32,000 nt of DNA from Proteus hauseri (GCF_040139125.1 NZ_JBEEUB010000003.1:73504-105503); one strand, 5' to 3'. Numbered from the stretch's first letter, positions 12,042 through 28,858 are shown. Numbers and translations: made by a program. The notes: generated from the sequence alone by a model not told the origin.

Positions 12042-14186
12042 GTGTCCCGTACAATTATGCTAGTCCCAACTGATACACGCGTAGGTTTAACCAGCGTCAG
12101 CTTGGGTGTTATCCGTTCTATGGAACAAAAAGGCGTTAGCCTGAGTGTGTTCAAACCTATTGCACAGCCTCGTGTTAAAGGTGCATTAGATCAGACAACC
12201 GCAATTATCCGCTCCCACTCTACTATTCAATCTTCAGAACCTTTAAATATGGATTATGTTGAGTCACTACTCAGCTCAAACCAAAAAGATGTTCTGATGG
12301 AAGAGATTGTTGCTAGATACCATGAAAATACCGCTGATGCAGAAGTTATTCTCATCGAAGGTTTGGTACCTATGCGTAAGCATCCTTTTGCTCAATCATT
12401 AAACTATGAGATTGCCAAAACATTAGGTGCTGAAATTGTTTTCGTTACTGCATTAGGTAACAACACCGCAGAACAGCTAAAAGAGCGTATTGAATTTGCT
12501 CGTGCTGAGTTCGGTGGTATTAAAAATCAGAATATTACGGGTGTTATCGTTAATAAACTTAACGCACCTGTTGATGATCAAGGTCGTACTCGCCCTGATT
12601 TATCAGAAATCTTTGATGATTCAAGCAAAGCAACTATCTCAAATGTTGATTTACAAACCATCGAAAAAAACAGCCCACTACCTTTACTGGGTTGCATTCC
12701 ATGGAACTTTGACTTAATTGCTACCCGTGCAACGGATATGGCAAAACACTTAAATGCGACTATCGTTAATAAAGGCGATATCGAAACTCGTCGTATTAAG
12801 TCTGTCACGTTCTGTGCTCGCAGTATCCCACATATGTTAGAACACTTCCGTCCTGGTTCACTGTTAGTGACTTCAGCGGATCGTCCTGATGTATTAGTTT
12901 CTGCATGTCTTGCTGCAATGAATGGTGTTGAAATCGGTGCTATTTTACTGACTGGTGGTTATCAAATCGATGCTCCAATCAAACAGCTTTGTGAACGTGC
13001 ATTTGAAACTGGCTTGCCTATCTTTATGGTAAATGCAAATACTTGGCAGACCTCTTTAAATCTGCAAAGCTTTAGCTTAGAAGTACCAGCAGACGACCAT
13101 GAACGTATTGAAAAAATTCAAAACTACGTTGCTCAACATATCAATGCAGAATGGATTGATTCATTAACCGCTAATTCAGAACGCCCTAACCGTTTATCTC
13201 CACCAGCATTCCGTTATCAATTAACTGAACTAGCTCGTAAAGCGAAAAAACGCATCGTTCTGCCAGAAGGTGATGAACCACGTACGGTTAAAGCAGCCTC
13301 TATTTGTGCTGAGCGCGGTATCGCAACATGTGTTCTGTTAGGTGATCCTGAAGAAATTCGCCGCGTAGCAGCAGCTCAAGGTGTTGAATTAGGCACTGGT
13401 ATTGAGCTTGTTAATCCTAAAGAAGTACGTGAAATCTATGTACCTCGTTTAGTTGATCTGCGCAAAAATAAAGGCATGACTGAAGTTGTTGCTCGTGAAC
13501 AGTTAGAAGATAACGTTGTTCTTGGCACATTAATGCTAGAAAAAGGTGAAGTTGATGGTTTAGTTTCTGGTGCTGTTCATACCACCGCAAACACTATTCG
13601 CCCACCACTACAGTTAATTAAAACGGCACCAGGTAGCTCACTGGTTTCTTCTGTGTTCTTTATGCTGTTACCAGAACAAGTTTATGTTTATGGTGACTGT
13701 GCAATTAACCCAGATCCAACCGCTGAACAACTGGCTGAAATCGCAATTCAATCTGCAGATTCTGCCATTGCATTCGGTATCGACCCACGTGTTGCAATGA
13801 TCTCTTACTCTACTGGTAACTCAGGTGCAGGTAGTGATGTAGAGAAAGTCCGTGAAGCAACTCGTTTAGCACAAGAAAAACGTCCTGATCTGATGATTGA
13901 TGGTCCTTTACAATACGACGCAGCAGTTATGGCTGACGTTGCTAAATCTAAAGCACCAAATTCACCAGTTGCAGGTAAAGCGACTGTGTTTATCTTCCCT
14001 GATCTGAACACCGGTAACACCACTTATAAAGCGGTACAACGTTCAGCTGACTTGGTTTCAATCGGACCAATGTTACAAGGTATGCGTAAACCAGTGAATG
14101 ACCTTTCTCGTGGTGCATTAGTTGACGATATCGTCTACACCGTTGCCTTGACAGCAATTCAAGCAAGCCAACAAGAAAACGCATAA
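12042..14186 (+). CDS. pta: Phosphate acetyltransferase
   Basis: The 714-aa ORF starts with GTG, as does E. coli pta. (V/M)[31 protein letters not shown] matches the E. coli Pta N-terminus. The C-terminal PTA_PTB domain is present ([21 protein letters not shown]). Confidence 0.97.
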
Positions 14187-14213
14187 TTATTGAAGTTTGC
14201 TTCAATTAGAACA

Positions 14214-14247
14214 ACGCCAGATGATTAATTTCATCTGGCGTTTTTTA
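14214..14247 (+). terminator. Rho-independent terminator of ackA-pta
   Basis: An 11-bp perfect stem ACGCCAGATGA (14214-14224) / TCATCTGGCGT (14231-14241) is followed by T6. Confidence 0.85.
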
Positions 14248-14262
14248 TTCTACTGATTTTCT

Positions 14263-14340
14263 ATTTAACTAAAATTCGAGGCAGTCTCAAGAGCTCAACA
14301 ACTTGATTCTGTCTCCTTTAAAAAGGAGAGTCAAGAGAAA
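14263..14340 (+). pseudogene. Remnant of a third hok/sok-like unit (leader segment only, toxin ORF deleted)
   Basis: 14270-14340 (CTAAAATTCGAGGCAGTCTCAAGAGCTCAACAACTTGATTCTGTCTCCTTTAAAAAGGAGAGTCAAGAGAAA) aligns with the intact leader at 14528-14598, with differences clustered in a central stretch of about 15 nt. After ..CAAGAGAAA it jumps directly to CCCCACTT (14341). In the intact unit CCCCACTT follows only at 14843, so the 243 bp corresponding to 14600-14842 (the hok CDS plus 3' region) are missing. Confidence 0.6.
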
Positions 14341-14442
14341 CCCCACTTATAAACACACCATACAAAAACAACTAATACATTGATTTTACTTATTTATTTA
14401 GACTATTTTTATTCAGAAAAAGATAGGAATGAGGTCGATTTC

Positions 14443-14451
14443 TGTTAGTAT
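14443..14451 (+). promoter_or_regulatory. Candidate extended -10 promoter of hok-like mRNA, copy 1
   Basis: TGtTAGTAT is a TGn plus -10 hexamer with 4/6 matches, and there is no good -35. The predicted TSS near 14458 places GGGUGCUUGG at the extreme 5' end of the mRNA. That is where the 5' pairing element sits in hok mRNAs. Confidence 0.35.
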
Positions 14452-14497
14452 GCAGGTGGGTGCTTGGATCATTTTGGTTCAAGCATTTGCGAGCGCC

Positions 14498-14558
14498 AAA
14501 AAGACGAAAGCCCCGAATTTTAATTTACTAAAATCCGAGGCAGTCTCAACGCCAGACA
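14498..14558 (-). ncRNA. Candidate Sok-like antisense RNA, copy 1
   Basis: The minus strand carries a promoter TTGACT (14593-14588), a 17-nt spacer, and CAGAAT (14570-14565). Its -35 lies between the hok SD and ATG. The predicted transcript of about 60 nt is fully complementary to the hok leader, including GAGG at 14537-14540. It contains the hairpin GGAUUUUA-GUAAAU-UAAAAUUC and ends ..GGGGCUUUCGUCUUUUU. Size and layout match Sok of plasmid R1 as I recall it. Confidence 0.45.
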
Positions 14559-14598
14559 ACGTCGATTCTGTCTCCTTTAAAAAGGAGAGTCAAGAGAA

Positions 14599-14742
14599 AT
14601 GACTAAATTTGCCCTGATAGGGCTGATTGCTGTCTGCATGACAGCACTGTGTTTATCACTACTTAGGCATGAAAGATTATGCTCTTTCAATATTCGTAGT
14701 GGTCATACAGTAGTTCAAGCGACTTTATCTTGCGATAAATAG
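14599..14742 (+). CDS. Hok/Gef-family type I toxin (47 aa), copy 1
   Basis: The peptide is MTKFALIGLIAVCMTALCLSLLRHERLCSFNIRSGHTVVQATLSCDK. It has one N-terminal TM helix followed by the Hok/Gef signature: VC.T...L.R..LC....R.GH..V.A. Compare R1 Hok ..[32 protein letters not shown].. The SD AAGGAGA (14582-14588) lies 10 nt upstream and is buried in the hairpin TCTCCTTT/AAAGGAGA (14571-14588). At 47 aa it falls below the 60-aa ORF-track cutoff. Confidence 0.75.
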   Translation: MTKFALIGLIAVCMTALCLSLLRHERLCSFNIRSGHTVVQATLSCDK

Positions 14743-14966
14743 CTTTGTGGGGGAATTTTCCCCCACAATTTCTCATAACACGTTGTTGCGTTTTGTGGTT
14801 ACAAGCACCCTACTTTAATGACTTACAATACACAGATGAGTACCCCACTTCTCGCCCCCTCTCTTTCACTCTTATTTTCACAATAATAAAACCAACTAAC
14901 GCATTGATTTAACTAATGTATTTACACTGTTTTTACTCAAAAAAAGATAGGAATGAGGTCGATTTC

Positions 14967-14975
14967 TGTTAGTAT
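14967..14975 (+). promoter_or_regulatory. Candidate extended -10 promoter of hok-like mRNA, copy 2
   Basis: Identical to 14443-14451 (inside the 403-bp perfect repeat, offset +524). Confidence 0.35.
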
Positions 14976-15021
14976 GCAGGTGGGTGCTTGGATCATTTTG
15001 GTTCAAGCATTTGCGAGCGCC

Positions 15022-15082
15022 AAAAAGACGAAAGCCCCGAATTTTAATTTACTAAAATCCGAGGCAGTCTCAACGCCAGACA
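15022..15082 (-). ncRNA. Candidate Sok-like antisense RNA, copy 2
   Basis: Identical to 14498-14558 (offset +524). The same TTGACT-17-CAGAAT promoter lies at 15117-15112 / 15094-15089 on the minus strand. Confidence 0.45.
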
Positions 15083-15122
15083 ACGTCGATTCTGTCTCCT
15101 TTAAAAAGGAGAGTCAAGAGAA

Positions 15123-15266
15123 ATGACTAAATTTGCCCTGATAGGGCTGATTGCTGTCTGCATGACAGCACTGTGTTTATCACTACTTAGGCATGAAAGA
15201 TTATGCTCTTTCAATATTCGTAGTGGTCATACAGTAGTTCAAGCGACTTTATCTTGCGATAAATAG
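15123..15266 (+). CDS. Hok/Gef-family type I toxin (47 aa), copy 2
   Basis: The nucleotide sequence is identical to 14599-14742. The 3' end of the repeat (15343) overlaps the stop codon of the convergent racemase gene (15339-15341). Confidence 0.75.
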   Translation: MTKFALIGLIAVCMTALCLSLLRHERLCSFNIRSGHTVVQATLSCDK

Positions 15267-15338
15267 CTTTGTGGGGGAATTTTCCCCCACAATTTCTCAT
15301 AACACGTTGTTGCGTTTTGTGGTTACAAGCACCCTACT

Positions 15339-16562
15339 TTAATCAACTAACACACGTTGATTAGTTGCGCCCCATAAAATGGACATTTCAGTAAATAGCG
15401 CACCACTGATATCTTCAACTTCTTCAGCTGTAATCTCAGCATTACCTTGCTGACCAAAAAACACCACTTCATCACCTGATTTGATATTTTTAAGGGAGGT
15501 TATATCAACAATCACAGTATTCATGGAGGTTTTACCCAACACAGGAACACGTTGACCACCAATTAATGCATGCCCTGCATTACTGAATACTCGTCGATAA
15601 CCATCAGCATAACCAACGGGAATATTGGCTAATACAGAGTCACGTTTTAAGGTATAAGTACGATCATAACCCACTGTATTACCTTTAGGATAATAATTGA
15701 TTGATGCAATATTTGATTTAAACGTCATCACACGTTTGTAGTCTGTGCTTGCGATAGTATCACCATAGAAAATACCACCAACACGTACCATATCTAACCA
15801 TGATTCAGGCACCGTGATCGTGGCAAAGGTATTTGCCATATGTAGTATCACATCTTTACGATCTAGCCCTGTAACTTCCAATACCTTTTGCGATTGCTGT
15901 TTAAAACGTGCAAGATCTTCTCTTACTTTATCCGCATCTTCTTCAGGATAGTGAGACATAATACCAACCACTTTAAGGTTAGCTAACTGGGCAATTTGCT
16001 TCGCTTCTTCAAGCCCTGCTTTGTTATTTACCTCTAAGCCATTACGCGACATTCCACCTGAATTTAACGCCAAATGGATAGGGATAATTTTATTTTGTTG
16101 TTTAGCAATAACATCTAATTTTTTTGCCATATCAAGATTGCCAATTAACTCTTCTACATTATAGGCAGTGGCTTGAGACATCTCTTGCTCTGTCGCGTTA
16201 CGAACTCGCATTAAACGCCCGTTAAAACCTAAATCACGTACCTGTTTTAACTCTTGGTTATTGGTCACACCAATACATTGCACATTGTTTTCAATCATTA
16301 CTGGTGCAACGAGTGATAAATCATGACCATAAGCATCCCCTTTTAATACTGCACAAAGAGAAGATTTCTCGCCTAACAGCGATTGAACTTTTTTCACATT
16401 AAAATCAAGCGCACTGCGTGAAATTTCAATCCATGAGTTATTAACAATTGCAGGCTGAACCTGAGTTGTTTGCGTTACTGGTGGATTGTAATTAACCGGT
16501 TGTTGACAAGCAGTGATAACCAAAAGAGGTAACAGCGCAAGATATCGTAAACCAAAAGACAT
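15339..16562 (-). CDS. Alanine-racemase-family PLP enzyme with a lipoprotein signal peptide (probable periplasmic broad-spectrum amino-acid racemase, Bsr-like)
   Basis: The ORF track frame is 15339..16604. I start at ATG 16562 ([19 protein letters not shown]|QQP), which has AAGGA 8 nt upstream. There is a lipobox ITAC. Alr-family motifs are present: the PLP-Lys context [11 protein letters not shown], and the PVGYADGY and MSHY regions. Confidence 0.8.
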
Positions 16563-16723
16563 CTTATTTTTCCTTAGTGATTGTGATGTAAGACCTTGAA
16601 CCAATTATTTTGTTGTAATTAATTAGGCACGAAAATATACACAATGTGAATATTCACTAAGGATAATAAGCATTTTTATTCATAAAATAAACATATAAAT
16701 TCATATGTTATTATTGATATAAC

Positions 16724-16818: not shown

Positions 16819-17886
16819 TGGTTTTATCCCCGTGCATACGGGGAACACCCATTTCCTGCATTTATAAAATAGTAATCATTCGGTTTATCCCCGTGCATAC
16901 GGGGAACACTGGTAACGGGGATAAGTGGGTTACTGAAATTCCGGTTTATCCCCGTGCATACGGGGAACACTGATCATACTCTTCATATTTCATTTTATAT
17001 TCCGGTTTATCCCCGTGCATACGGGGAACACTATCATCAGGGCATTGTGCCATGTTATAACCTCGGTTTATCCCCGTGCATACGGGGAACACTTCTGAGC
17101 TTCTTCTAACTTCTCGTCATACTGCGGTTTATCCCCGTGCATACGGGGAACACTGTGTATCTTTGCAATCCAGTTATAGCCCTGTGCGGTTTATCCCCGT
17201 GCATACGGGGAACACCGAGCCCTACAAGTGAATATGGATTTCATTCGCGGTTTATCCCCGTGCATACGGGGAACACCTGCTCAACCGAAGGTGTTAATGC
17301 CGCACTAGCGGTTTATCCCCGTGCATACGGGGAACACATGATTATCTGGCAAATGTTGCAGTTAATAATCGGTTTATCCCCGTGCATACGGGGAACACGA
17401 AGTAGGGCGCTGAATATAGTGTCTATGTTCAGGTTTATCCCCGTGCATACGGGGAACACTTATCGAACATTTCGTATAAATCATCTTTCAGCGGTTTATC
17501 CCCGTGCATACGGGGAACACTTAACAGTCACATAAACGTCACTCAAGAAAGCCGGTTTATCCCCGTGCATACGGGGAACACTGATATCGCGGTTTTACTT
17601 GAGCGAGTTCTGGCGGTTTATCCCCGTGCATACGGGGAACACATTATCGTGTGTATATATGAACTCTCTAATATCGGTTTATCCCCGTGCATACGGGGAA
17701 CACGGTTCAACTGGAAAAGCCGCTGTGTTAGAAGACGGTTTATCCCCGTGCATACGGGGAACACTAGTTAGTAGGAAACGCAAATGAGTTAGTTTGCGGT
17801 TTATCCCCGTGCATACGGGGAACACGGTCAGACACAAAGAAAACATATTTAAACACCCGGTTTATCCCCGTGCATACGGGGAACAC
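16819..17886 (-). CRISPR. CRISPR array 1, type I-E repeat family, 18 repeats / 17 spacers
   Basis: The 29-nt repeat is CGGTTTATCCCCGTGCATACGGGGAACAC on the plus strand. In crRNA sense on the minus strand it is GTGTTCCCCGTATGCACGGGGATAAACCG, close to the E. coli K-12 repeat GTGTTCCCCGCGCCAGCGGGGATAAACCG. The period is 61 nt. Sixteen spacers are 32 nt and one is 33 nt (17154-17186). The repeat at 16819-16848 is degenerate (an extra T), which marks the leader-distal end. The newest end abuts the cas2-proximal leader. Confidence 0.98.
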
Positions 17887-17944
17887 TCTAAATATATTTA
17901 ATTGATTTAATTAAATAAAAAAACATATTTATTTCTACCAAATA
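17887..17944 (-). promoter_or_regulatory. Leader of CRISPR array 1 (the entire cas2-array intergenic region, 58 bp)
   Basis: AT-rich. In minus-strand sense it ends ..ATATTTAGA immediately before the first repeat. This matches the ..TTTAGA|GTGTTCCCC leader-repeat junction of E. coli I-E as I recall it. Confidence 0.7.
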
Positions 17945-19163
<1,219 letters not shown>

Positions 19164-19164
<1 letters not shown>

Positions 19165-19841
19165 TAAATAGTCCTAATTAGCATCAACCCACAGCCAAAG
19201 GCTTTTGCTCTACCAAATCCTTGTTGGTATTGTTGCCAAAAAAGAGCAGGATCTTCAATCGTAAGGGTACCTTGATAATCAACAGAAGAAAAAGCCATTA
19301 TTTTTCCTGACGATTTTTTAATACGTTCAGGCGTATAGGCTTTAATATCTGGCAAATGATTTAATGAAATCCCCCACTTATTTAAACGCTTTTCAGAACT
19401 TATCCAATTTAATGCGGCTTGTTGCATTAAATTATGAATATCATCTTGATTATAATTGTTGGCATTTAATTGAGCCTGCTTTTTAGCATGCATAAGAACA
19501 TCATGACGATGTTGTTTTCCCTCTTTATCGGTAATACAAATCGTTGGATTTGCTCTTAATGAAAATGCCAATTTCATTTTTGTGGTTAATTTGGGTAAAA
19601 AAGGTTTGGTTTCTATTTTAAAAAAACGGTGTTGAATAGTTGGCATTACAGAAGAAAGTATATAAAAAATAGGCGTTCCATTTTTCTCCATTTCTACTCG
19701 ATAAAGAAATGAGCGTTCAGTTTCTTCAGTAAATAGCTGCCACAATAACTGATGAATGGTATATCCTGCCTGCCGTTCGTTTGCGAGCAACGAGTGTAAA
19801 TAGTCAGTGGAACCGCCTATTGTAATTCTAGACAAGTACAT
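19164..19841 (-). CDS. casE: Cas6e (CasE/Cse3) pre-crRNA endoribonuclease
   Basis: The 225-aa ORF has the N-terminus MYLSRITI and the C-terminal motif GFGRAKAFGCGLMLI, as in E. coli CasE (MYLSKV.., GIGPAKSMGCGLLSL). It holds the conserved operon position and overlaps casD as TAATG. Confidence 0.9.
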
Positions 19842-20578
19842 TATTCGCCCTCCTTTCTTACACTCATTTGGTACATTTCGCGTTGGCGAAATTGCCAGTG
19901 CTGTCTATTTACAGGCTCATCCCACGGATGCAACGTCATTATATTTTTACCCGCAATTTCTTGACGACTTCCTTCCCAATAGTAAGTTACCCACCCATCT
20001 GAACTAAACCAATAATTATCCGCTTTATCAGAAGACATAATAGCTGGGAATGTTATATCTAATGCGTCTTGTAGTTGTTCTGTTTCTACAATTTGAGGCA
20101 TCATTGGTAAAGATAGCGGACAAGACTTACGACCTAAACTTAATGTGTAAGTAGGCATAAGTAATGCATTTTTAAGTTTATCTAGTGTATATTTCGAATG
20201 ATCAGTCAGCTTAATTGCTATAATCCATACGGCATCACATCGATAGTCTCGATTAGATAAAACAGTATTTAGATCTTTTTCAGCTAATTCGCTGCGCCGG
20301 GTTGAATGTATTATATTCTTGCGTGCAGAAGGCACCTGAGCAGTATGGTAGTCTCTTAATAAAGTACTCGGCACTTTCTGTTTTACTGCAACTAAAACAC
20401 TCTGCTGTAATTGAGTAAGTGCTAATTCATCTTCTCGCTTAATTCCTAATGCAGCACCAAGAAAACCTAGGATAGCTGAACGCGATGGCGCCAGCCCAGT
20501 TTGCCTATCGCCACCAACAGCGGGTAATCCCCAACTAGCAAGGGGTCCATAAAGCCGAAAAACGAGATATTGTGCCAT
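19841..20578 (-). CDS. casD: Cas5e (CasD)
   Basis: The 245-aa ORF begins MAQYLVFRLYGPLASWG....PSRSAILGFLGAALGIKR. This matches the Cas5e N-terminal motif (E. coli MRSYLILRLAGPMQAWG..PTRSGLLGLLGACLGI). Confidence 0.9.
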   Translation of the reverse strand: MAQYLVFRLYGPLASWGLPAVGGDRQTGLAPSRSAILGFLGAALGIKREDELALTQLQQSVLVAVKQKVPSTLLRDYHTAQVPSARKNIIHSTRRSELAEKDLNTVLSNRDYRCDAVWIIAIKLTDHSKYTLDKLKNALLMPTYTLSLGRKSCPLSLPMMPQIVETEQLQDALDITFPAIMSSDKADNYWFSSDGWVTYYWEGSRQEIAGKNIMTLHPWDEPVNRQHWQFRQREMYQMSVRKEGE

Positions 20579-20590
20579 GATATCTCCTTA

Positions 20591-21625
20591 TTATTCAGCG
20601 ATAAATTGTAATAATTCAGAGAGCGAGCCTTCTCCTGTTGCGGCATTTAGCTGATAACGTGAATCTGCACAAGCGCCATAAACTTTATCAAAATTTTCCA
20701 TGCGTTGATTTAATGCTGTTATTGCAGAAAATTCCATCTCTTCATCATCGATAGGTTTTAAAAATGCGACAGATAAAGAGCGTGGTTGATAACTTCCTTT
20801 TTCAGCTAAAACATAACTTGCATATGCACGAGAGGCAAAACTGTTTTGCTTACCTGTTGGCGATACTTTGATAGCTACTTCAGTTAACGCTTGAATTGCT
20901 TTATTGGCGAGCTCTTCATTGCCCTCTAATGATTCAATTAACTGAGTTTTATTAATGCAGATATAACTATAAAAAAGCGCAGCCGCAAAACCCATTTCAC
21001 CAATATGAGCAGACCCTGCATCTGTTTTACCATCATTTAAATCATCTACAGCAGTAAAATAGTCATCTTCAACAACCGCACTATGAACACTAATAGCATG
21101 AGCGACTTGGCAAGCGGCTTCGACATTATATTTTGGAGCGGATGCTAGCATTCGACCAAATAATGCAATATCAACAGATGTTTTATTCGATTTTAAATCA
21201 TCTAATTCTGCTTTCGTTGGTTCTCTACGTTCTTCAATAAGTAATTTTATTAAATCGAATGCTTTCACTTTTTCAAAATGACTAATATGAACAAGTTGTT
21301 CAGTTTCAATACTCTCTTTTTTTAGTTTGCCATATTGGTCAACCATTAACTCTGTCCATTTTTTAGCTTCTTTTTCCGCAATACCACCTTTAATTAATTC
21401 ATCATATATTTGTAATCCAAACTGCTTAGTACGAGTCCCTATATTGCCTGAAAGTGCAACATCAAATAACTCAGAAGTACGCCAATGACGCTTTAAACTT
21501 TGTGAACTTATTCTTAAACGCTCAAAACCACCCATTCTTGCTGTTTTTGGGCGGCCTAAATCATCACGATTTAAATTAGAAGGTGCGTAAGAAGTAAGAA
21601 TATGTAACTGAATAAATTGGCTCAT
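20591..21625 (-). CDS. casC: Cas7e (CasC/Cse4) Cascade backbone subunit
   Basis: The ORF track frame is 20591..21691. I start at ATG 21625 (MSQFIQLHILTSYAPSNLNRDDLGRPKTA..RISSQSLKRHWR). This matches the CasC N-terminus (..NIHVLISHSPSCLNRDD..RISSQSLKR) and avoids overlap with casB. Confidence 0.92.
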   Translation of the reverse strand: MSQFIQLHILTSYAPSNLNRDDLGRPKTARMGGFERLRISSQSLKRHWRTSELFDVALSGNIGTRTKQFGLQIYDELIKGGIAEKEAKKWTELMVDQYGKLKKESIETEQLVHISHFEKVKAFDLIKLLIEERREPTKAELDDLKSNKTSVDIALFGRMLASAPKYNVEAACQVAHAISVHSAVVEDDYFTAVDDLNDGKTDAGSAHIGEMGFAAALFYSYICINKTQLIESLEGNEELANKAIQALTEVAIKVSPTGKQNSFASRAYASYVLAEKGSYQPRSLSVAFLKPIDDEEMEFSAITALNQRMENFDKVYGACADSRYQLNAATGEGSLSELLQFIAE

Positions 21626-21657
21626 TGTCTTTATCCTGTTTAATTTTATTAAAATAG

Positions 21658-22245
21658 TTAAATTGCGGCTTGATAATATTTCATTGCCCACTCAACGATA
21701 ACTTGTTGATTAGTTTTTACAGTTCGAATTCTTTGTTTTTCTAAAACCCATTTTTCAATATCTTTACACATTGAAAATACAGATGCTTTTCCTTTAATTT
21801 GAATTAGAATTCGTCTTAAGCGCCTTATAAATTCATCATAAGTACGAGAAGATTGAAGTTGTAAAAAACGTGACTCGCTGATAATTGACTTTTTACTTTC
21901 ATCTTTTTCACCCGCTACCGTAGCAAAGTGTTTATCACTATTTTGTGTAATATAAACTAACACCGCAGTAATCGTTGCCCAACGCTCAATATCCTCTGTT
22001 TTAGCTTGATTAATTAAATCCGTTGGAAAACTAAGCCATAATGCGCGAAACCCTTCCGTTAACATAATTGCAGTAATAGATTCGCAACGTTTTAATTCTG
22101 CTTTATATCGATTAGGTGCTGGTGCAATTCCTTTTTTTCTTAATTCATCCGGCGATAAAAATAGGCTTTCCCACCAACGTAGCACATTAGCTTGTAATTC
22201 TGGATGACTATGCAGAGTAATATTATCCGATTTATAAAACCCCAT
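21658..22245 (-). CDS. casB: Cse2 (CasB/Cas11e) small Cascade subunit
   Basis: The ORF track frame is 21658..22287. I start at ATG 22245, which has GGAGAGG 5 nt upstream, giving 195 aa. The protein looks alpha-helical and basic, and the position between casA and casC is conserved. The sequence is diverged from E. coli CasB, so the call rests mainly on synteny. Confidence 0.8.
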   Translation of the reverse strand: MGFYKSDNITLHSHPELQANVLRWWESLFLSPDELRKKGIAPAPNRYKAELKRCESITAIMLTEGFRALWLSFPTDLINQAKTEDIERWATITAVLVYITQNSDKHFATVAGEKDESKKSIISESRFLQLQSSRTYDEFIRRLRRILIQIKGKASVFSMCKDIEKWVLEKQRIRTVKTNQQVIVEWAMKYYQAAI

Positions 22246-23830
22246 GTTCCTCTCCATTTTTCTTAGTAATTTTAAAATCTGTAGCAAAGCTTTTTATTTT
22301 TTTATTGCCATAAAGATCTCTGATTAAATTTTGCCTAGCCTTTATACATCCACTCACTGTTTTTTGTGTGCCTAATGAAGACAATGCATATTCATCAAAG
22401 ATGGAAAAACAAATATTTCTTATACTATTTAGCCAAAGGCTAGCTTGTTCAGGTGTTAAAAAGTCATCTTCCTGAGTTTGTTCAATAATATTTTGTACTG
22501 TTGAAAAAAATATACTCTCGCTTCTTTGCCAAAAGGTTAAATCAATAAAACTTATATCGCCTTTTATATCTTTAGGTCGTTCAAACCATGCCGCTTTTAT
22601 CTGATTTCTTAAACTTTTCAAGCATTCAGTAGTCAATGATTGAATAAGTTTTATTTCATTAATTACTTTATTATGATATTTATCTTCTATATGAAAAATA
22701 GGCATTTCTAAAGCATACCATCCTCTCGGTTTCATATTATCCATATCATAACCAAAAATAAGTAATCGAGGTTTTCTTGTAAACTCTAATGATTGATATA
22801 ACTTTAGATAATGACTAACTACAGTGGCACATTTTTGTCCATTTTCACTACTTGATAATAGTAATCTATCCCAAAGATTATAATGAATTCCGCCTTCCCT
22901 TCCTTTAATAGAATTAGGGAAAGTATCGGGTTTTTTAGTGTCCCAGTAATAAGGCGTTAATGGGTGTAGCCACCCTTCTTGGTAATCTAAACCATAATTT
23001 TTAGTTAAATAGTATTGCACTGTAATATTGCTATTTTCACCACTAATTTGGCATGTTGCAGGCTTATTTTCTGCTTGTAATCTTATTCTACGAGGCATAG
23101 CCCAATACATATGAAGAGGATGAACATCATTAGGATAAACTTTTTCTCCCATTCCCTCTTTTAAGTTCAATGGTACTAACCAAGGGAAAATACTACCATC
23201 GTAAAAATTTGGCTCATCATATTCCCAAAAATCACGATTAATCACATTTAGCCATAGCTTTTGCCATAACGTTGCCTCTGTATCGGTAGGTGATATCAAG
23301 GTAGTTAAAGGACCGCCTCCCCTTAAACTTACTCGATGGCCTTGACCTCCACTAGGCGCATTTATCTGTAGCGTAAACAGTGCTAATACTGCCATTTCTA
23401 ATGACATTACATCAGCAATGCCTCGTTTAATAAAGTGATCAGTATTCTGCTTTATTCCATTTTCACCCGGTGCATCAATTAATAATTGCGCTATAGGTAT
23501 ATTTTTTTGCTCTTCTAATGAAGAAAAATCCTGCATAAATAAAGGTGCTTCACCTGTTACATTAAAAGCATGAGCGACTTTATCAAAGGCACTTTTTAGC
23601 GTGTTATCTGAAGGCGGTGTTGCAAAATATTCTTCCCACTCATCTTCATCTTCTGGTGCAAATACCGTTTGTAATAACCCGATTGCAAATTGGTAAGCAG
23701 CACCTTGAAAATCGGCTCTATTTAAAGCAAAGTCGATAATATCAGGGTGAGAAATAGCTGAGATAGGAAGGGTTTTTATCTCTCCATTACGAAAACGAAA
23801 AGGCAACCAAGGTTGATTAATAATATTCAT
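22232..23830 (-). CDS. casA: Cse1 (CasA/Cas8e) large Cascade subunit
   Basis: The 532-aa ORF has the N-terminus MNIINQPWLPFRF (E. coli ..IDNWIPVR). The internal stretch APSGGQGHRVSLRGGGPLTTLI corresponds to E. coli APGFGGGFKSGLRGGTPVTTFV. Its start overlaps the cas3 stop as ATGA. Confidence 0.9.
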   Translation of the reverse strand: MNIINQPWLPFRFRNGEIKTLPISAISHPDIIDFALNRADFQGAAYQFAIGLLQTVFAPEDEDEWEEYFATPPSDNTLKSAFDKVAHAFNVTGEAPLFMQDFSSLEEQKNIPIAQLLIDAPGENGIKQNTDHFIKRGIADVMSLEMAVLALFTLQINAPSGGQGHRVSLRGGGPLTTLISPTDTEATLWQKLWLNVINRDFWEYDEPNFYDGSIFPWLVPLNLKEGMGEKVYPNDVHPLHMYWAMPRRIRLQAENKPATCQISGENSNITVQYYLTKNYGLDYQEGWLHPLTPYYWDTKKPDTFPNSIKGREGGIHYNLWDRLLLSSSENGQKCATVVSHYLKLYQSLEFTRKPRLLIFGYDMDNMKPRGWYALEMPIFHIEDKYHNKVINEIKLIQSLTTECLKSLRNQIKAAWFERPKDIKGDISFIDLTFWQRSESIFFSTVQNIIEQTQEDDFLTPEQASLWLNSIRNICFSIFDEYALSSLGTQKTVSGCIKARQNLIRDLYGNKKIKSFATDFKITKKNGEEHGVL

Positions 23831-26517
23831 GACAATTCCTGTCTTTCACTAAAACCGATTAAAGGATCATATTGATAATTTATATCTTCTTCTGGTATCC
23901 ACAATTGTAAATAGCGCGTTTGTGGATATTGTTTATTTATCTTTTCTTTTATATTTTCAGTTACAGTAGTGAGCTTATCGGCATATTTATTTTTCGAAAT
24001 TTTTACAGTACTTAAAGCAATAGAAAAATTAGGATCCTCTACCCAAGGAAGATAATTATCTTCTATTTTCTTTAATAAAAGGACATTAGCTATTTCGATA
24101 TCGCTGTATCGTGTGCTTATATCATAATAATCTTCTGTCCAAAATTCTGAACTCTCTTCACTGTAGCCCTTATTTAATTTTAATAGTTGCAATTGAGCTT
24201 TTACTGCTTTTGCTCTTTGTTCACCCAAACTATTATTTTCTTGTCGAATTAACGATAGTGGAATTTCATTATAAGCATTATCGCTATAAACTGACTCAAT
24301 TAATTGCCGCGCATCTTGTGGCATTTTTATTTCACCTAATTGCATTAAGCTTCTTAACGTTAACCATAAACGCCCCGGGGAGCGATAAACCGCTTCTGTA
24401 GATGAAAAATAGTGAGAAAGCCAATTACTTGAAGGTTCGTCTGTAAATAATGGTGCATGCACATATAATATAGGCGCTGTACGTTTATCTTGTTCTGTTG
24501 CAGTATAATCACCAGTTATTGTGCGAGTATGTCGATGCAGTCGTCCTGATCGTTGAATAAGATCGTCAATAGGACAAATATCTGAAATCATAATATCTGC
24601 ATCAGCATCTAAACTCTCTTGAAATACTTGAGTCGCAATTAAGACTGTACCTTTTCTTTGTTTAGCTGTGCTCAGTTTTCCAAATCGATTTAATACTTGT
24701 TCTTCACGTATTTTCCTATCTTGTAGTGTAAATCGGCTATGGAATAACAGGCAATTATCTTGATTTTCAGGTAGCCTTTGATTTATATCACGATATGCTT
24801 TAATAGCATCATTAACCGTATTTCTAATCCAAACAACACAGTTTCCATTATTTACTGCACTCACTATAATATTAATACAGTCTTGTTCTTCATTTATTAT
24901 TTCAACGTTTACTTGTCGACTGACTTCCTTTCTACTTTCTAAAGGATATTCCATCATTGCTACTTTGGGGGAATATGTTAAGTGTGTTGCTAATGGAAAA
25001 CTTTTTGACTGTATCATTTTTTGCGGCTGATCTAGTGCATCAAACCAGCTATTAATAATTCTTTGTCTTTGCTTAAGTGATAAAGTGGCTGTTAGTAGAA
25101 TAACAGAACCACCTTGATATAGATGTGCAGATAACAAATGTTCAATAATTTCAAACATAAATTCATCTGCAGAGTGAATTTCATCAAAGATGATAACTTT
25201 TCTATTTAATCCTAATAATCTTAAAGGTTGGTGCCTTCTAGGGAGCATGGCTAATAAAGCTTGATCTAGCGTTCCGACACCAATTGTTGCTAATAACGCT
25301 TTTTTACGAGAATCAGATAACCACTGATAGCATTGTGCAGATGCAGTATTATCTCGACTATTATATTGTTCGTTCCCATCTCTAATAATATTAGTAAATT
25401 GTTCATTCATAATGCTAGCACCATGTGCAAGTACAATACTGGGTGCTTCGCTATTTTCATCAAATATTTTAGTATAATAATTGACAATTCTTGAAAACAT
25501 GGCATTAGACGTCGCCATTGTAGGCAAACCAAAATAGAACCCATCAGCAGCATCAGCTTCCATTAATCGATGGGCTAATGTTAATGCTGCTTCAGTTTTA
25601 CCCGCTCCCGTAGTGTCTTCTAATATAAAAAGTTGGGGATGTTCATTTATTGGTACTTTTTCAGCCCATTGCTGTAGTGGTGTGGGTCTATAACCAAAAT
25701 TATGCTCAACAGAAATAAAAGGAGATATTTGGTAATCTCGCTTAAAACCACTTGATAATATAGCTTTCTCTGCTTGCTTTAACGTTAATAACCAATACTC
25801 AGATAATGAAACTCTATTTTTATAATAAGGAAAATACTCATTATTAGAACCAATCCAGTCAGCGAGTGTTGTCATTCCCGCAAGAAGCCATGATATCTGT
25901 TTTAATCTACCTAGCCACTCTTTATCATAAAAAAGCGCTGCTGAAATGCTAGGGTTAAATAATTTAAAAGCATCACAAGCAAAATTAACCGCTGAATTTT
26001 TATTATTTTTATGGATAAAGTTTTCCATATGCTCAATGTCATTCTTATTAATTGGTTTTCCATGATGCCCTAATACTGTTTCAATAATTATCAGAAAACC
26101 ATTTGATAATTTACGCTTATTATAATCACCGCCCGGTATTACCAAAGAAAAAATCGTTTCTTTTATTTCGTTCCAAAAATAATAACCTAAACGATCATGG
26201 CGATAATTTTTTCCATCGTAAGAAAACCGACTTTCAGGTATTTGCTTTTTATCAATAATATTTTGACTAATATATTGAAATGAAGAAGAAAATTTCCCCA
26301 AATCATGAAGAGAGAGTATAAAACCAAATAATTTAACGAAGTCTTCGGGGTTAATCTGTAAGAAATTAGAAATATCTTTCACAATTTTTGTATCTGCTGA
26401 AAATAATATAGAGCCAACAGCTGCTACATCGAGACTATGGTAAGGAAGTAAGTGATAACACTCACTATTACTGTCTGATTTAAATTTACCCCAATAGCTG
26501 TAATAGTCTTTATTCAT
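23827..26517 (-). CDS. cas3: Cas3 nuclease-helicase (HD + SF2 helicase)
   Basis: The 896-aa ORF has N-terminal HD motifs (HSLDVAAV, LHDLGKFS, LGHHG). Helicase motif I is TGAGKTEAAL, motif II is FDEIH, and motif VI is QRSGRLHRH. It is the first gene of the cas operon. Confidence 0.95.
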   Translation of the reverse strand: MNKDYYSYWGKFKSDSNSECYHLLPYHSLDVAAVGSILFSADTKIVKDISNFLQINPEDFVKLFGFILSLHDLGKFSSSFQYISQNIIDKKQIPESRFSYDGKNYRHDRLGYYFWNEIKETIFSLVIPGGDYNKRKLSNGFLIIIETVLGHHGKPINKNDIEHMENFIHKNNKNSAVNFACDAFKLFNPSISAALFYDKEWLGRLKQISWLLAGMTTLADWIGSNNEYFPYYKNRVSLSEYWLLTLKQAEKAILSSGFKRDYQISPFISVEHNFGYRPTPLQQWAEKVPINEHPQLFILEDTTGAGKTEAALTLAHRLMEADAADGFYFGLPTMATSNAMFSRIVNYYTKIFDENSEAPSIVLAHGASIMNEQFTNIIRDGNEQYNSRDNTASAQCYQWLSDSRKKALLATIGVGTLDQALLAMLPRRHQPLRLLGLNRKVIIFDEIHSADEFMFEIIEHLLSAHLYQGGSVILLTATLSLKQRQRIINSWFDALDQPQKMIQSKSFPLATHLTYSPKVAMMEYPLESRKEVSRQVNVEIINEEQDCINIIVSAVNNGNCVVWIRNTVNDAIKAYRDINQRLPENQDNCLLFHSRFTLQDRKIREEQVLNRFGKLSTAKQRKGTVLIATQVFQESLDADADIMISDICPIDDLIQRSGRLHRHTRTITGDYTATEQDKRTAPILYVHAPLFTDEPSSNWLSHYFSSTEAVYRSPGRLWLTLRSLMQLGEIKMPQDARQLIESVYSDNAYNEIPLSLIRQENNSLGEQRAKAVKAQLQLLKLNKGYSEESSEFWTEDYYDISTRYSDIEIANVLLLKKIEDNYLPWVEDPNFSIALSTVKISKNKYADKLTTVTENIKEKINKQYPQTRYLQLWIPEEDINYQYDPLIGFSERQELS

Positions 26518-26752
26518 ATTAACCTAATCACTATTTTCTATATTTTGCAGTCTATAATAAATAACAACTATTTTCTTAATTTAATACTAAAAACTAGACC
26601 GACCCCTATTTATTTATAACTCTACTATTTTACTCGGTATACAAACAATAATTTTATAAATGTCATTTTATTGTTAAAAATAATAAAAAATACTAACTAT
26701 TACTTATTCGTTTATTTTATAAAATAAAATTAGAAGCAATATATATTTAAGA

Positions 26753-28794
26753 ATAATTATCCCCGTGCATACGGGGAACACAAGTTAATTGATTGGTTAG
26801 TGATGTATATTTACGGTTTATCCCCGTGCATACGGGGAACACGTCAAGCACACACGCGAAATATGAAGGTAAGGCGGTTTATCCCCGTGCATACGGGGAA
26901 CACTTAATCCGCGCTTTTTAATAGTTCAAATATAGCGGTTTATCCCCGTGCATACGGGGAACACTGCCATAAACTCATCTGAGAACTCGTTTTTCCCGGT
27001 TTATCCCCGTGTATACGGGGAACACCATTTTGATAATGTATTCGCGAAACATATAGGCGGTTTATCCCCGTGTATACGGGGAACACGCAAACCGAAGCCA
27101 GAGGCCGTACACCTTTGGCGGTTTATCCCCGTGTATACGGGGAACACTCAACATGCTCTACACACTGGAATGCCAGTAACGGTTTATCCCCGTGTATACG
27201 GGGAACACCAGAAGCTCGCGCATTTCGTCTTCGTCCATGCCGGTTTATCCCCGTGTATACGGGGAACACATATGGATGCTGATTTACCTAATGAACCAAT
27301 CCGGTTTATCCCCGTGTATACGGGGAACACAAACAGAGACGCCACTTGATGAATTCTCGTTGCGGTTTATCCCCGTGTATACGGGGAACACATACGCCAT
27401 ATCCAAATTTAACCATTCGCCCACGGTTTATCCCCGTGTATACGGGGAACACTCGGTCTCTTTTCAACATCACGAGATAGCTGGCGGTTTATCCCCGTGT
27501 ATACGGGGAACACTAGAAAGGAAACAAGAAAGCTAACCCCTCCTCCGGTTTATCCCCGTGTATACGGGGAACACGGAGATGATGAACAACCGAGATACGA
27601 CACTGATGGTTTATCCCCGTGTATACGGGGAACACACTACCCCTGCCTCCCCGAACACAGAATTTATCGGTTTATCCCCGTGTATACGGGGAACACGTCC
27701 ATCTCTGCTACAGCTTGTACTTCTTCGCCGGTTTATCCCCGTGTATACGGGGAACACAAATCACGGTACGCATAACAAAGAGCCGTAACCGGTTTATCCC
27801 CGTGTATACGGGGAACACATATTTACCATCGCTAATCATGTCGTTTAACGCGGTTTATCCCCGTGTATACGGGGAACACTTATCACTCTATGCCTGATGA
27901 CGTTTGTCAGGCGGTTTATCCCCGTGTATACGGGGAACACGGTCAAGAACTCCAGTTGAAAGCCCTGATAGCCGGTTTATCCCCGTGTATACGGGGAACA
28001 CTATTTAATCCAAATATGTGGTTTTCCATTAAACGGTTTATCCCCGTGTATACGGGGAACACGATGAATTCCAAATCCCCGAAACAGCGATAGGCGGTTT
28101 ATCCCCGTGTATACGGGGAACACTTTTTTGTAGCACCACTAATTGATTGAATTGCCGGTTTATCCCCGTGTATACGGGGAACACCCCGTAAGCCTCGGCT
28201 AACCCATTAACATAGGCGGTTTATCCCCGTGTATACGGGGAACACGGTGTACACCACTGGTCGCCAATTTCTTTTAGCGGTTTATCCCCGTGTATACGGG
28301 GAACACTCATGGATAGACTTTCTTATATAGAAAGAGGGCGGTTTATCCCCGTGTATACGGGGAACACACGTACAGACTACAAGATCCCAGCCCAATTTCC
28401 GGTTTATCCCCGTGTATACGGGGAACACTTCTTCACTACTATCTTTTAGTAATAATAATTCGGTTTATCCCCGTGTATACGGGGAACACAATATGATTAT
28501 TTCGATACGTTACTAACATCTCGGTTTATCCCCGTGTATACGGGGAACACCATTGCACCGTTTTTATCAGTGATAGAATCGTCGGTTTATCCCCGTGTAT
28601 ACGGGGAACACAGTACAAACAGAGGATGAGGTAATTTCAACACCGGTTTATCCCCGTGTATACGGGGAACACTTAGCAATACAGAATAAGGTATACCCTG
28701 CTCACGGTTTATCCCCGTGTATACGGGGAACACTGCGCGATAATTAATACCATCTACAAGACTATCGGTTTATCCCCGTGTATACGGGGAACAC
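26753..28794 (-). CRISPR. CRISPR array 2, type I-E repeat family, 34 repeats / 33 spacers, two repeat variants
   Basis: The strict 61-nt period starts at 26814, and every spacer is 32 nt. The four leader-distal repeats (26753-26964) carry GTGCATAC, like array 1; the first of them is degenerate in its outer 8 nt. The 30 repeats from 26997 to 28794 carry GTGTATAC. The orientation is the same as array 1 and the cas genes, with the leader on the high-coordinate side. Confidence 0.98.
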
Positions 28795-28858
28795 TCTAAT
28801 CATAATAGATTGAATATAAAAAAGAAATTTAACTCTCTCTTTTTTACCAAAAAAACAT
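28795..28858 (-). promoter_or_regulatory. Leader of CRISPR array 2
   Basis: AT-rich. In minus-strand sense it ends ..ATGATTAGA|GTGTTCCCC, the same TTAGA junction as leader 1. There is a near-consensus IHF-like element, ATTCAATCTATTA, about 10-22 nt from the first repeat. Confidence 0.65.

Follow-up and report, generated by a model that had tools for sequence, protein, structure and literature searches.

Two stretches of 403 bases, identical to each other, lie in tandem downstream of pta in a 32,000-nt stretch of Proteus hauseri DNA (NZ_JBEEUB010000003.1; the window, i.e., the whole stretch that was analysed). The locus raises the question of whether these copies are intact toxin-antitoxin units of the hok/sok type, and how their sequences came to be the same. 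The explanation that we consider very probably correct is that the window carries two intact chromosomal units of the hok/sok family and one dead remnant, which belong to an old tandem array of Proteus and Providencia located downstream of pta.

The two cores and the Hok peptide

In direct comparison within the window, 14417-14819 and 14941-15343 matched at 403 of 403 bases with an offset of 524, as the first-pass annotation had claimed. The identity ended sharply at both edges. The 45 nt preceding each core showed 9 mismatches between the copies (80% identity), against 0 differences in the 403 bases of the core. The segments in front of the cores, 14341-14416 and 14843-14940, had been described as diverged and unequal in length, and this was correct. 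They share the opening CCCCACTT and are homologous, but they are 76 and 98 nt long and show 73% identity across the final 76 nt. Unit 2 shares its final 5 nt with the 3' end of the racemase gene, which runs convergently. The features are listed in Table 1.

Table 1. Features of the hok/sok locus and its surroundings, in window coordinates.
Feature	Position	Strand	Remark
Unit 0, decayed third unit	14259..14340	+	82 nt; 83% identical to 14518-14599 and 15042-15123
Spacer S	14341..14416	.	5' of unit 1; paralogous to last 98 nt of inter-copy spacer
hok/sok unit 1	14417..14819	+	Complete transcription unit, from -41 of hok promoter to just beyond fbi
Predicted hok promoter, extended -10 (TGTTAGTAT)	14443..14451	+	Predicted from conservation of TGnTAnnAT
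tac (GGGTGCTTG)	14458..14466	+	5' end of hok mRNA; pairs with 14802-14810
Predicted Sok RNA, ~61 nt	14498..14558	-	From promoter and terminator-like hairpin; ends predicted
ucb/SD-like hairpin	14510..14541	+	Full-length fold; opposite strand is the Sok terminator stem
Sok terminator, 14-pair hairpin and T run	14541..14510, 15065..15034	-	One per core
Variable patch (Sok 5'-tail target and Sok start region)	14549..14561	.	From column entropy
hok-SD hairpin (TCTCCTTT-AA-AAAGGAGA)	14571..14588	+	Buries SD AAGGAG, 14582-14587
Sok promoter, TTGACT-17-CAGAAT	14593..14565, 15117..15089	-	Third copy at 14334..14306
hok toxin ORF, 47 aa	14599..14742 (unit 1), 15123-15266 (unit 2)	+	ATG start; PF01848
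G+C-rich hairpin, 10-pair stem	14745..14768	+	Directly 3' of stop codon
fbi (CAAGCACCC)	14802..14810	+	Complementary to tac
Inter-copy spacer X	14820..14940	.	121 nt
hok/sok unit 2	14941..15343	+	Identical to unit 1; every element at +524
Unit 2 extended -10, tac, SD, hok ORF	14967-14975, 14982-14990, 15106-15111, 15123-15266	+	
Unit 2 hairpin, fbi	15269-15292, 15326-15334	+	
Unit 2 Sok RNA	~15082..15022	-	
Racemase gene	15339-16604		Convergent with unit 2
PTS gene	28923-30179		Type I-E island lies between racemase gene and PTS gene

The ORFs of both units encode MTKFALIGLIAVCMTALCLSLLRHERLCSFNIRSGHTVVQATLSCDK, i.e., one 47-aa peptide per core as had been read before. The peptide is a member of the Hok/Gef family, which confirmed the earlier assignment. 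It scored 25.8 bits against Pfam PF01848 (HOK_GEF; gathering cut-off 22, E = 8.2e-6), and the match spanned residues 5-45 of 47 and profile positions 2-42 of 42. It has the length of about 50 aa, the N-terminal hydrophobic helix and the conserved C-terminal LC...G.T/H..V.A part of the family. An annotated Hok/Gef protein of an IncF plasmid (WP_001378818.1) was 63% identical over 46 aa without gaps, and homologues were found by tblastn in 2,983 plasmid records. The NCBIfam HokA and Hok-family models (NF007290 and NF007279) gave scores below their curated cut-offs, 25 vs 89 and 20 vs 73, so that, by sequence, none of the named E. coli Hok proteins is orthologous to the peptide.

The first-pass annotation took the peptide to be unannotated and such loci to be routinely left out. 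Neither statement can be kept. The exact sequence is deposited in NCBI (RefSeq) and UniRef as "MULTISPECIES: Hok/Gef family protein [Proteus]" and occurs on 72 contigs, and the hok ORF had been called by gene callers in 10 of 10 related loci. Hok in P. mirabilis was already listed by Fozo et al. 2010 (PMC2887945), according to whom Hok is the best-annotated type I toxin family.

The 47-codon ORF was intact in all 32 units collected from Proteus and Providencia. The pN/pS of these ORFs was 0.15-0.41 where computable, and about 0.2 for the more diverged units. The hok peptide, as read from these alignments, is under purifying selection across two genera. By analogy with its family, it would act as a membrane toxin. 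Another ORF of 57 aa at 14429-14602, whose stop overlaps the hok ATG, was rejected as a gene. Its start lies 5' of the point at which the transcript is predicted to begin, Pfam gave no match, and the frame is interrupted in other units.

The leader RNA, Sok and the absent mok frame

The Rfam family RF01794 was matched at 14458-14609 and 14982-15133 with 77.9 bits each (cut-off 59), and these were the only Rfam matches above the gathering score in the 32 kb window. The model is oriented in the hok sense, according to the IncF plasmid control. Sub-threshold matches at 14139-14249 (Qrr, NsiR1, and others) were discarded because they are merely the pta terminator. The -35/-10 scan did not detect a hok promoter. 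Within diverging surroundings, every Proteus and Providencia unit retains the extended -10 motif TGnTAnnAT, as does the IncF plasmid homologue. The hok transcript is predicted to start at about 14458, where position 1 of the Rfam model aligns.

The features tac, fbi, and ucb were defined as in PMC9841398. The full-length hok RNA folded at -133.6 kcal/mol (z = -9.25). A 9-bp tac/fbi helix was present in this minimum-free-energy fold and in the RNAalifold consensus, with 99.3% of cells paired across 31 distinct sequences. Among the units, fbi carries only three wobble-compatible substitutions and two single mismatches. Because the helix hardly varies, its support consists of conservation and wobble-compatible changes, not of double compensatory ones. 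In the fold of the 3'-shortened RNA, tac switches to ucb at 14508-14514, and the same pairing is found in the Rfam alignment.

In the full-length fold, the GCCCC of ucb sequesters the invariant GAGG at 14537-14540, i.e., the position of the mok Shine-Dalgarno sequence in the plasmid homologues. Three pairs of this hairpin (helix 3) show compensatory changes, and two C-A mismatches of the sense strand read as G-U pairs on the Sok strand. The hok-SD hairpin (helix 5, 97.4% paired) is present in the full-length and shortened folds. The hairpin behind the stop codon (helix 13) has two compensatory pairs. It is likely the 3'-protective stem of the processed mRNA, a role modelled on the terminal stem-loop of the truncated hok mRNA of plasmid R1 (PMC9841398). 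No clear intrinsic terminator was recognized 3' of fbi. Across the 32 units, 97.5% of cells in the helices were paired, compared with about 48% when the partners were slid; 15 pairs showed compensatory changes, and the observed covariation was reached in 0 of 500 shuffles. The units therefore share a conserved, covarying RNA architecture.

The predicted Sok RNA folds into a single-stranded 5' tail of 17 nt, a hairpin of 13-14 bp and a U tail (-20.3 kcal/mol, z = -4.25). Its promoter hexamers are nearly invariant among the 32 units. In the window scan, terminator-like sites were above chance (10 vs 1.0 +/- 1.1 in shuffles), whereas promoter-like sites were not (5 vs 3.1 +/- 1.8). The leader thus appears to contain, on the 5' side of the toxin ORF, an antisense gene that is served by a promoter and a terminator of its own. 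At the sequence level, the promoter, terminator, and fold bear out the earlier proposal of a minus-strand antisense RNA, about 60 nt long, driven by TTGACT-17-CAGAAT.

The target of the Sok 5' tail is the sole variable patch in the leader. Its mean column entropy was 1.2 against 0.0-0.25 in the flanking leader, and several distinct sequence types and 2-nt indels were found among the units. In the full-length fold, the patch pairs with a variable segment of the 3' UTR, 14770-14793. Duplexes between cognate partners averaged -13.6 kcal/mol and non-cognate ones -11.6 kcal/mol, and about one third of the units stand out. Co-evolution of the two segments is suggested, but the signal is not robust.

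From these elements, each unit may be proposed to work as follows. The hok mRNA, made from the extended -10 promoter, would be structured and about 360 nt long between its predicted ends. In the full-length RNA, the 5' tac would pair with the 3' fbi, ucb would hold the GAGG region and the local hairpin would bury the hok SD, so that the RNA forms a silent reservoir. The convergent promoter in the leader would produce the Sok RNA, which is fully complementary to 14498-14558. By analogy with plasmid R1 (PMC9841398), slow trimming of the 3' end would remove fbi, tac would re-pair with ucb, and the RNA would open to Sok and the ribosome. As long as Sok is present, the duplex would be destroyed by RNase III, as modelled on the same system. 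When transcription stops, the unstable Sok would be lost and the 47-aa Hok made, which would insert in the inner membrane and kill or arrest the cell. Since the cores are identical, one Sok species would control both mRNAs, and the two copies would double the dose of toxin and antitoxin.

The mok leader ORF was not found, as no ATG, GTG or TTG is placed in range after GAGG. The IncF homologue has an ATG 5 nt past GAGGC, where the window reads TCA. No leader ORF with a canonical start is conserved among the units. The only one present, from TTG at 14474, was rejected, because it has no SD, lies within the tac hairpin and loses its frame by 2-nt indels in other units. Non-canonical starts at 14549 (ACG) and 14565 (AUU/CUG) were also rejected, as they are not conserved. 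The absence of mok had been overlooked in the earlier reading. The hok-SD hairpin is closed in both predicted conformations, i.e., full-length and 3'-shortened, and the activation step is therefore not explained by the folds. A relay, in which unpaired GAGGC would bind GUCUC and so open the SD hairpin, was dropped, as the hairpin is closed in these same two minimum-free-energy folds.

A wider proposal can be offered tentatively, with somewhat less than an even chance of being right. Proteus and Providencia may hold a mok-less branch of hok/sok, which forms a converting array at a fixed site and has a diversifying Sok tail. If so, RNA structure and Sok alone would control the translation of Hok, without coupling to a leader peptide. 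The array would grow, shrink, and be homogenized through gene conversion, always at the same site. Diversification, whether allowed or selected for, would be confined to the Sok 5' tail and give each unit its own antitoxin specificity, and conversion would make two units share one specificity, as in the window.

History and setting of the array

The genome scan returned 19 loci. Two of them (L026 and L027) were set aside, being chance matches of 21-22-mers. Proteus and Providencia carry one to five hok/sok units at the site downstream of pta, and complete chromosomes are among these genomes. Where other genomes have tandem copies, these are mosaic, with 91-96% identity to each other. Units 1 and 2 of P. 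cibi likewise have identical cores behind differing spacers. Unit 1 of the window is 93-99% identical to units of other Proteus species, while the flanking pta is 88-93% identical.

A decayed third unit, unit 0, lies in front of unit 1, and it was overlooked in the first-pass annotation. It comprises the distal hok leader only and still carries the minus-strand hexamers of a Sok-type promoter. It has lost the 5' leader and the hok promoter, and a deletion that begins precisely at the ATG has removed the toxin ORF and 3' UTR. Other Proteus genomes have the remnant at the corresponding position, but its conservation is low, about 77%, and its hexamers are mutated, so that it is considered a relic.

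The spacers preserve the history of the copies. Spacer S was 83-87% identical to the orthologous spacers of single-copy and multi-copy Proteus genomes, and 73% identical to the tail of 14820-14940. Spacer X was 83.5-88.4% identical to the inter-copy spacers of five multi-copy Proteus loci (P. cibi, L007, L002, L003, and L009), compared with 50% overall and 73% over the tail to spacer S. Since spacer X is orthologous across species, the array is old, and the perfect identity of the cores is read as the result of recent homogenization by gene conversion or unequal crossover, not of a first-time duplication. It had been suggested that gene conversion or a very recent duplication affected the core alone. 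Homogenization of the core alone is in agreement with these data, whereas the duplication part fits them poorly, because spacer X was inherited (83.5-88.4% to orthologues against 73% to its paralogue).

As for the surroundings, the cluster had been regarded as the exact boundary between E. coli-like synteny and the CRISPR-Cas region. Synteny with E. coli does stop at pta, behind which E. coli has yfcC. However, the order pta-hok-racemase-EIIC-GAT is a conserved Proteus backbone, whether CRISPR-Cas is present or not, and in the window the type I-E island is found past the racemase gene, ahead of the PTS gene. Unit number and the I-E island showed no significant co-occurrence in the Proteus genomes sampled.

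A very recent first-time tandem duplication, in place of a homogenized old two-copy array, would account for cores that are 100% identical and closest to the units of single-copy genomes, at 98.3-98.8% (L005, L001, L006, and L004). It is nevertheless improbable, since the spacer would have been copied too, yet 14820-14940 and 14341-14416 are only 50-73% alike; the inheritance of spacer X and the abrupt beginning of identity at 14417/14941, within otherwise homologous sequence, also argue against it. Less likely still is that the second copy is an assembly artefact of one real unit, because tandem units occur at this site in many other genomes, with arrays of two to five units in complete chromosomes. 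The repeats are perfectly identical, and the contigs with the exact pta protein are all from short reads and break about 154 nt past pta, at 14340, where the remnant and cores share an exact repeat of 36 nt. Identical repeats, however, are collapsed by assemblers rather than invented, as exemplified by a stand-alone 396-nt contig of P. mirabilis ATCC 29906 that equals one unit, and the unique 121-nt spacer has orthologues in other multi-copy genomes.

An old, homogenized array could also consist of inert relics, comparable to most chromosomal hok loci of E. coli K-12, which are kept by hitch-hiking and make no toxin because the mok-type ORF is gone. Many chromosomal hok loci of E. coli are inactive (Fozo 2010, PMC2887945; PMC11264685, discussion). 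The missing mok start codon, the hok SD held in a stable hairpin in every predicted fold and the decay of a unit at this very site (unit 0) fit such a reading, but it is unlikely. Every ORF is intact and under purifying selection in two genera, and compensatory changes preserve the RNA helices. The core is conserved above a neighbouring housekeeping gene (98.8% vs 92.3% to L005), and the dead unit 0, unlike the cores, drifted to about 77%. A functional tie between hok/sok and the CRISPR-Cas island, e.g., as an addiction module that stabilizes it, is scarcely credible. The first CRISPR array lies about 1.6 kb from hok/sok in the window, but the conserved racemase gene is placed between hok/sok and the island, and the same hok/sok site is found in Proteus genomes without CRISPR-Cas, where the PTS gene directly follows the racemase gene. 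Two intact units and a remnant of an old array remain the preferred explanation.

Known relatives and meaning of the locus

The closest comparison is the Hok-family locus of WP_001378818.1, adjacent to the IncFII repA of IncF plasmids, which we take to be srnB of plasmid F. Its leader scores 98 bits on RF01794, and its elements are the same and in the same order, i.e., extended -10, GGGTG 5' end, GCCCC box, GAGGC, SD, ORF, G+C hairpin, and CACCC 3' element. Beyond these conserved boxes, nucleotide identity is low. The ATG behind the plasmid GAGGC opens a leader ORF that runs in frame into the toxin, for a maximal ORF of 103 aa, whereas the window has none, and the window locus is chromosomal and tandem.

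The hok/mok/sok system of R1 also has a Hok/Gef toxin and a cis-antisense Sok gene in the leader, 5' of the ORF. The tac/fbi, tac/ucb, and ucb/SD pairings and the metastable 5' hairpin appear to be shared, as modelled by folding. In contrast to R1, the window lacks mok and a separate terminator hairpin past fbi, and its peptide has 47 aa instead of 52. Post-segregational killing is not applicable at a chromosomal site. The hokA-E loci of E. coli are chromosomal Hok/Gef genes with sok-type leaders as well, and HokA is the top NCBIfam model for the peptide. However, the peptide is far under the equivalog cut-offs, the genomic site differs (yfcC follows pta), and no nucleotide-level match to the locus was found in any of 5,426 E. 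coli chromosomes.

Tandem type I loci with strain-variable copy number are known from zorO-orzO/zorP-orzP, ldr/rdl, and ibs/sib (Fozo 2010, PMC2887945). They resemble the present locus in the repetition of near-identical toxin-antitoxin units within one intergenic region, but their toxin families are unrelated. The window copies are fully identical, and therefore their two antitoxins cannot discriminate between the mRNAs.

The locus belongs to an ordinary, already catalogued family and is mildly unusual only in its homogenized copies and missing leader ORF. It is neither a novel system nor part of the CRISPR-Cas island, and annotation of the pta-racemase interval should show two Hok/Gef genes, their sok RNAs, and one pseudo-unit. 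Beyond this housekeeping its importance is small. The array of Proteus and Providencia is a compact natural series, with one to five units, mosaic copies, a single variable specificity patch, and no mok. It could serve for studies of the evolution of antitoxin specificity and copy number, and of whether Hok is made without leader-ORF coupling.

Identity and setting of the hok/sok locus

The first-pass annotation had proposed two base-identical, unannotated hok/sok-like loci in tandem just downstream of pta. In base-by-base comparison at an offset of 524 (region 14100-15700 read), the two cores agreed at 403/403 positions, and the identity ended sharply at both borders. An ATG ORF for the proposed 47-aa peptide was found in each copy. 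The convergent minus-strand promoter proposed for a Sok-like antisense RNA, TTGACT-17-CAGAAT, was present in 3/3 copies, i.e., units 1 and 2 and the partial unit 0, and is followed in each full unit by a terminator-like 14-pair hairpin and T run. Terminator-like sites were well above expectation (10 vs. 1.0 ± 1.1 by chance). The promoter scan showed no excess of promoter-like sites (5 vs. 3.1 ± 1.8 by chance).

Features of the pta-PTS region (window positions)
Feature	Position	Strand	Remark
Unit 0	14259-14340		82 nt, remnant
Spacer in front of unit 1	14341-14416		
Unit 1	14417-14819		core, 403 nt
hok ORF, unit 1	14599-14742	plus	47 codons
Entropy peak 1	upstream of promoter		
Entropy peak 2	14549-14561		Sok 5' tail and target; about 1.2
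Entropy peak 3	14770-14793		3' UTR; 1.1
Inter-copy spacer	14820-14940		
Unit 2	14941-15343		core, 403 nt
hok ORF, unit 2	15123-15266	plus	47 codons
Alanine-racemase-family gene	15339-16604	minus	convergent; 5-nt overlap of its 3' end with unit 2
Type I-E CRISPR-Cas island	16900-28800		between racemase gene and PTS EIIC gene
CRISPR arrays	~16.9-17.9 kb and 27.2-28.8 kb		
cas3 to cas1	18.2-26.5 kb		
cas1	18244-19164		
cas3	23827-26517		
PTS EIIC gene	28923-30179		after island

The peptide scored 25.8 bits against Pfam HOK_GEF (PF01848; gathering score 22) and far under the cut-offs of the NCBIfam HokA and Hok-subfamily models. By these profile scores, it is a Hok/Gef family member and no orthologue of the named E. 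coli Hok proteins. Rfam RF01794 ("sok") matched at 14458-14609 and 14982-15133 (77.9 bits vs. 59), and Rfam gave no other hit across the 32 kb. Because this model is oriented hok-sense, i.e., it hits the toxin-gene strand of the IncF plasmid control, the match shows leader homology but does not indicate in which direction Sok runs. Among characterised-type relatives, plasmid Hok/Gef proteins were the nearest (2,983 plasmid records), those of E. coli and Klebsiella at 61-63% identity. The protein next to IncFII repA on an IncF plasmid aligned ungapped at 63%, and its locus is presumably of the F-plasmid srnB type. No match to the window locus was found in a DNA-level search of E. coli chromosomes.

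The peptide was not unannotated, since RefSeq and UniRef already list this exact sequence as "Hok/Gef family protein [Proteus]". The proposal that such loci are routinely left out of annotation was not supported either, as gene callers annotated Hok in 10 related loci. Among type I toxins, Hok forms the best-annotated family, type I loci are prone to tandem duplication, and one Hok was listed for P. mirabilis HI4320 (Fozo et al. 2010, PMC2887945). The literature available without subscription yielded no paper dealing with the pta-site array of Proteus and Providencia or with a hok/sok lacking mok. The locus is a real, ordinary hok/sok-family locus, correctly recognised and uncharacterised. Its modest interest lies in the absence of mok and the concerted evolution of the array.

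The upstream genes, i.e., yfbS-type permease, HAD phosphatase, yfbU, yfbV, ackA, and pta, are arranged as in E. coli, where yfcC comes after pta, whereas in the window the hok/sok units follow. Thus, the proposed boundary held in that E. coli-like gene order ends at pta. It did not hold as the start of an accessory region, because the hok/sok site is present in loci without CRISPR-Cas; the array is Proteus backbone, unlinked to the island. In 9/10 related loci, the racemase gene is directly followed by the PTS gene, without CRISPR-Cas. The N-terminus of the racemase resembles the signal of a lipoprotein or secreted protein, so the enzyme may be periplasmic. The 29-nt repeats of the two CRISPR arrays differ at one base (GTGCATAC vs. 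GTGTATAC). The listed ORFs 17137-17535, 26948-27349, and 27192-27536 lie inside these arrays and are probably spurious.

Predicted RNA structure and the leader without mok

In an alignment of 33 distinct Proteus and Providencia units, conservation starts at an extended -10 box (TGnTAnnAT, 14443-14451), and from 14458 onward (GGGTGCTTGG...) the units hardly vary. Because the first position of the Rfam model also falls on 14458, we infer that the hok mRNA starts there. The full-length RNA (14458-14819) gave a predicted fold of -133.6 kcal/mol (z = -9.25), in which nucleotides 1-9 form a helix with CAAGCACCC (14802-14810), i.e., the 5' element tac with the 3' element fbi. The tac/fbi interaction defines the inactive mRNA of the hok family (PMC9841398). 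When the last 39 nt were removed, the minimum-free-energy fold switched and tac paired with AAGCCCC, the leader box ucb (14508-14514), the structure encoded in the Rfam consensus; the centroid of the shortened RNA contained a 5' metastable hairpin.

RNAalifold on 32 units recovered the tac/fbi helix, ucb/GAGG hairpin, SD hairpin, several intra-ORF hairpins, and a post-stop hairpin. Paired cells reached 97.5% vs. approximately 48% with slid partners (pair count, 32 units). Compensatory changes occurred at 15 pairs, and the observed covariation was reached in 0/500 shuffles. The predicted Sok RNA (14558..14498, minus strand) folds into a 13-14 bp hairpin, preceded by an unpaired 5' tail of 17 nt and followed by a U tail (z = -4.25). 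The sense-strand hairpin is weaker, because two Sok G-U pairs become C-A mismatches.

In plasmid R1 and the IncF control, the leader ORF (mok in canonical hok/sok) begins just after the GAGG box, whereas the window units have no such ORF. The IncF locus has GAGGCCTGC-ATG and an ORF in frame into the toxin, whereas the homologous triplet in the window is TCA. Hok synthesis requires translation of the leader ORF up to the hok SD (PMC9841398). In all units, ATG, GTG, and TTG ORFs reaching this SD were scanned, and none was conserved. The sole such start in the window, TTG at 14474, lies inside the tac hairpin, lacks an SD, and has its frame broken by 2-nt indels in other units. In five Providencia units (L011, L012, L019, L028, and L017), a TTG ORF of 36-58 codons begins about 20 nt after GAGG and overlaps hok in another frame; the lineage of the window has TCG in place of this TTG. 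The Providencia ORF may be mok-like, with the window's lineage having lost it by this change.

A strong SD (AAGGAG, 14582-14587) belongs to the hok ORF itself, and a TAA at 14578 prevents in-frame extension. In the full-length as well as the shortened predicted conformation, a perfect local hairpin encloses this SD. Opening of this hairpin by a GAGGC/GUCUC pairing relay was unsupported by the predicted folds.

The array across genomes and its homogenisation

By exact-peptide look-ups and a genome scan with the leader 21-mer, hok/sok units were found at the same site, right after pta, across Proteus. One unit is present in P. penneri, P. columbae, P. faecis, and others, two in P. alimentorum and in the loci L003 and L009, three in P. 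mirabilis H110, and four full units with one partial in P. cibi. Providencia species showed pairs of related units.

In other genomes, the tandem copies resemble each other at 91-96% and are clearly mosaics; e.g., in unit 2 of L003 the 5' ORF goes with one lineage and the remainder with another. The two cores of the window show 0/403 differences and the 45 nt immediately upstream 9/45, and units 1 and 2 of P. cibi show the same pattern. This agrees with the gene-conversion half of the earlier proposal (gene conversion or a very recent duplication of the core alone, not a simple old tandem duplication) and indicates that the functional unit alone has evolved in concert, through gene conversion or unequal crossover. 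The identical cores could be read as a first-time tandem duplication, but the spacers do not point to this origin. The inter-copy spacer is orthologous across species, being 83.5-88.4% identical to the inter-copy spacers of five other multi-copy loci, and only 73% (tail) or 50% (overall) identical to the spacer in front of unit 1. Because it is closer to the spacers of other species than to its own paralogue, the multi-copy state predates these species.

Unit 0 was 83% identical to the distal leader 14518-14599 by repeat finder. It lacks the hok promoter, the 5' leader, and the entire ORF, and its Sok promoter hexamers look intact. The deletion junction lies exactly at the ATG and is followed by CCCCACTT, with which the next spacer begins. 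Other Proteus genomes have unit 0 in the corresponding position, drifted to approximately 77% and with variously mutated promoter hexamers. Judged from this sequence decay, it is a relic.

Five short-read Logan contigs (L030-L034) with the window's exact pta protein all stop about 140-155 nt past pta, at the first repeat, and in P. mirabilis ATCC 29906 a stand-alone 396-nt scaffold (L015) is one collapsed hok/sok unit. Short-read assemblies thus systematically lose the number of units at this site. A 5.2 kb contig of a MAG labelled Paenochrobactrum (L014) carries a unit nearly identical to that of Providencia huashanensis (L018) and is probably a mis-binned Providencia contig. Proteus vulgaris PR00166 has a second, Providencia-type unit on contig L022 (74% to the window core) besides the one matched on L023, which is flanked by sequence matching the pta-racemase region of the window; thus, two family sublineages coexist in one genome.

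Variable patches and maintenance of the toxin gene

Column entropy in the unit alignment is about zero over most of the leader, with three peaks. Within the unit, which hardly varies elsewhere, variability is confined to the patch at the Sok 5' tail and to the 3' UTR segment. Different Sok tail types, including 2-nt indels, occur among units of one array. As Sok is encoded antisense, complementarity to its target is automatic. Relaxed constraint is the simplest reading of the variable tail patch; selection for orthogonal Sok specificities is a possible, though unproven, alternative. The full-length fold brings the target patch into pairing with the 3' UTR segment that also varies. Duplexes of cognate partners reached -13.6 vs. 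-11.6 kcal/mol for non-cognate ones, a mean gain of only 2 kcal/mol, which is a hint, not a robust one, of three-way co-evolution.

The 47-codon ORF is kept in 32/32 units, and the exact peptide occurs on 72 contigs from at least four Proteus species. Wherever computable, pN/pS against the window sequence was 0.15-0.41; among Proteus and Providencia units, the more diverged ones gave approximately 0.2 (pS up to 0.84). By these measures, the toxin gene is maintained. Against the related locus L005, the core is 98.8% identical and the adjacent pta gene 92.3%; this higher conservation of the core fits constraint on both strands and by RNA structure.
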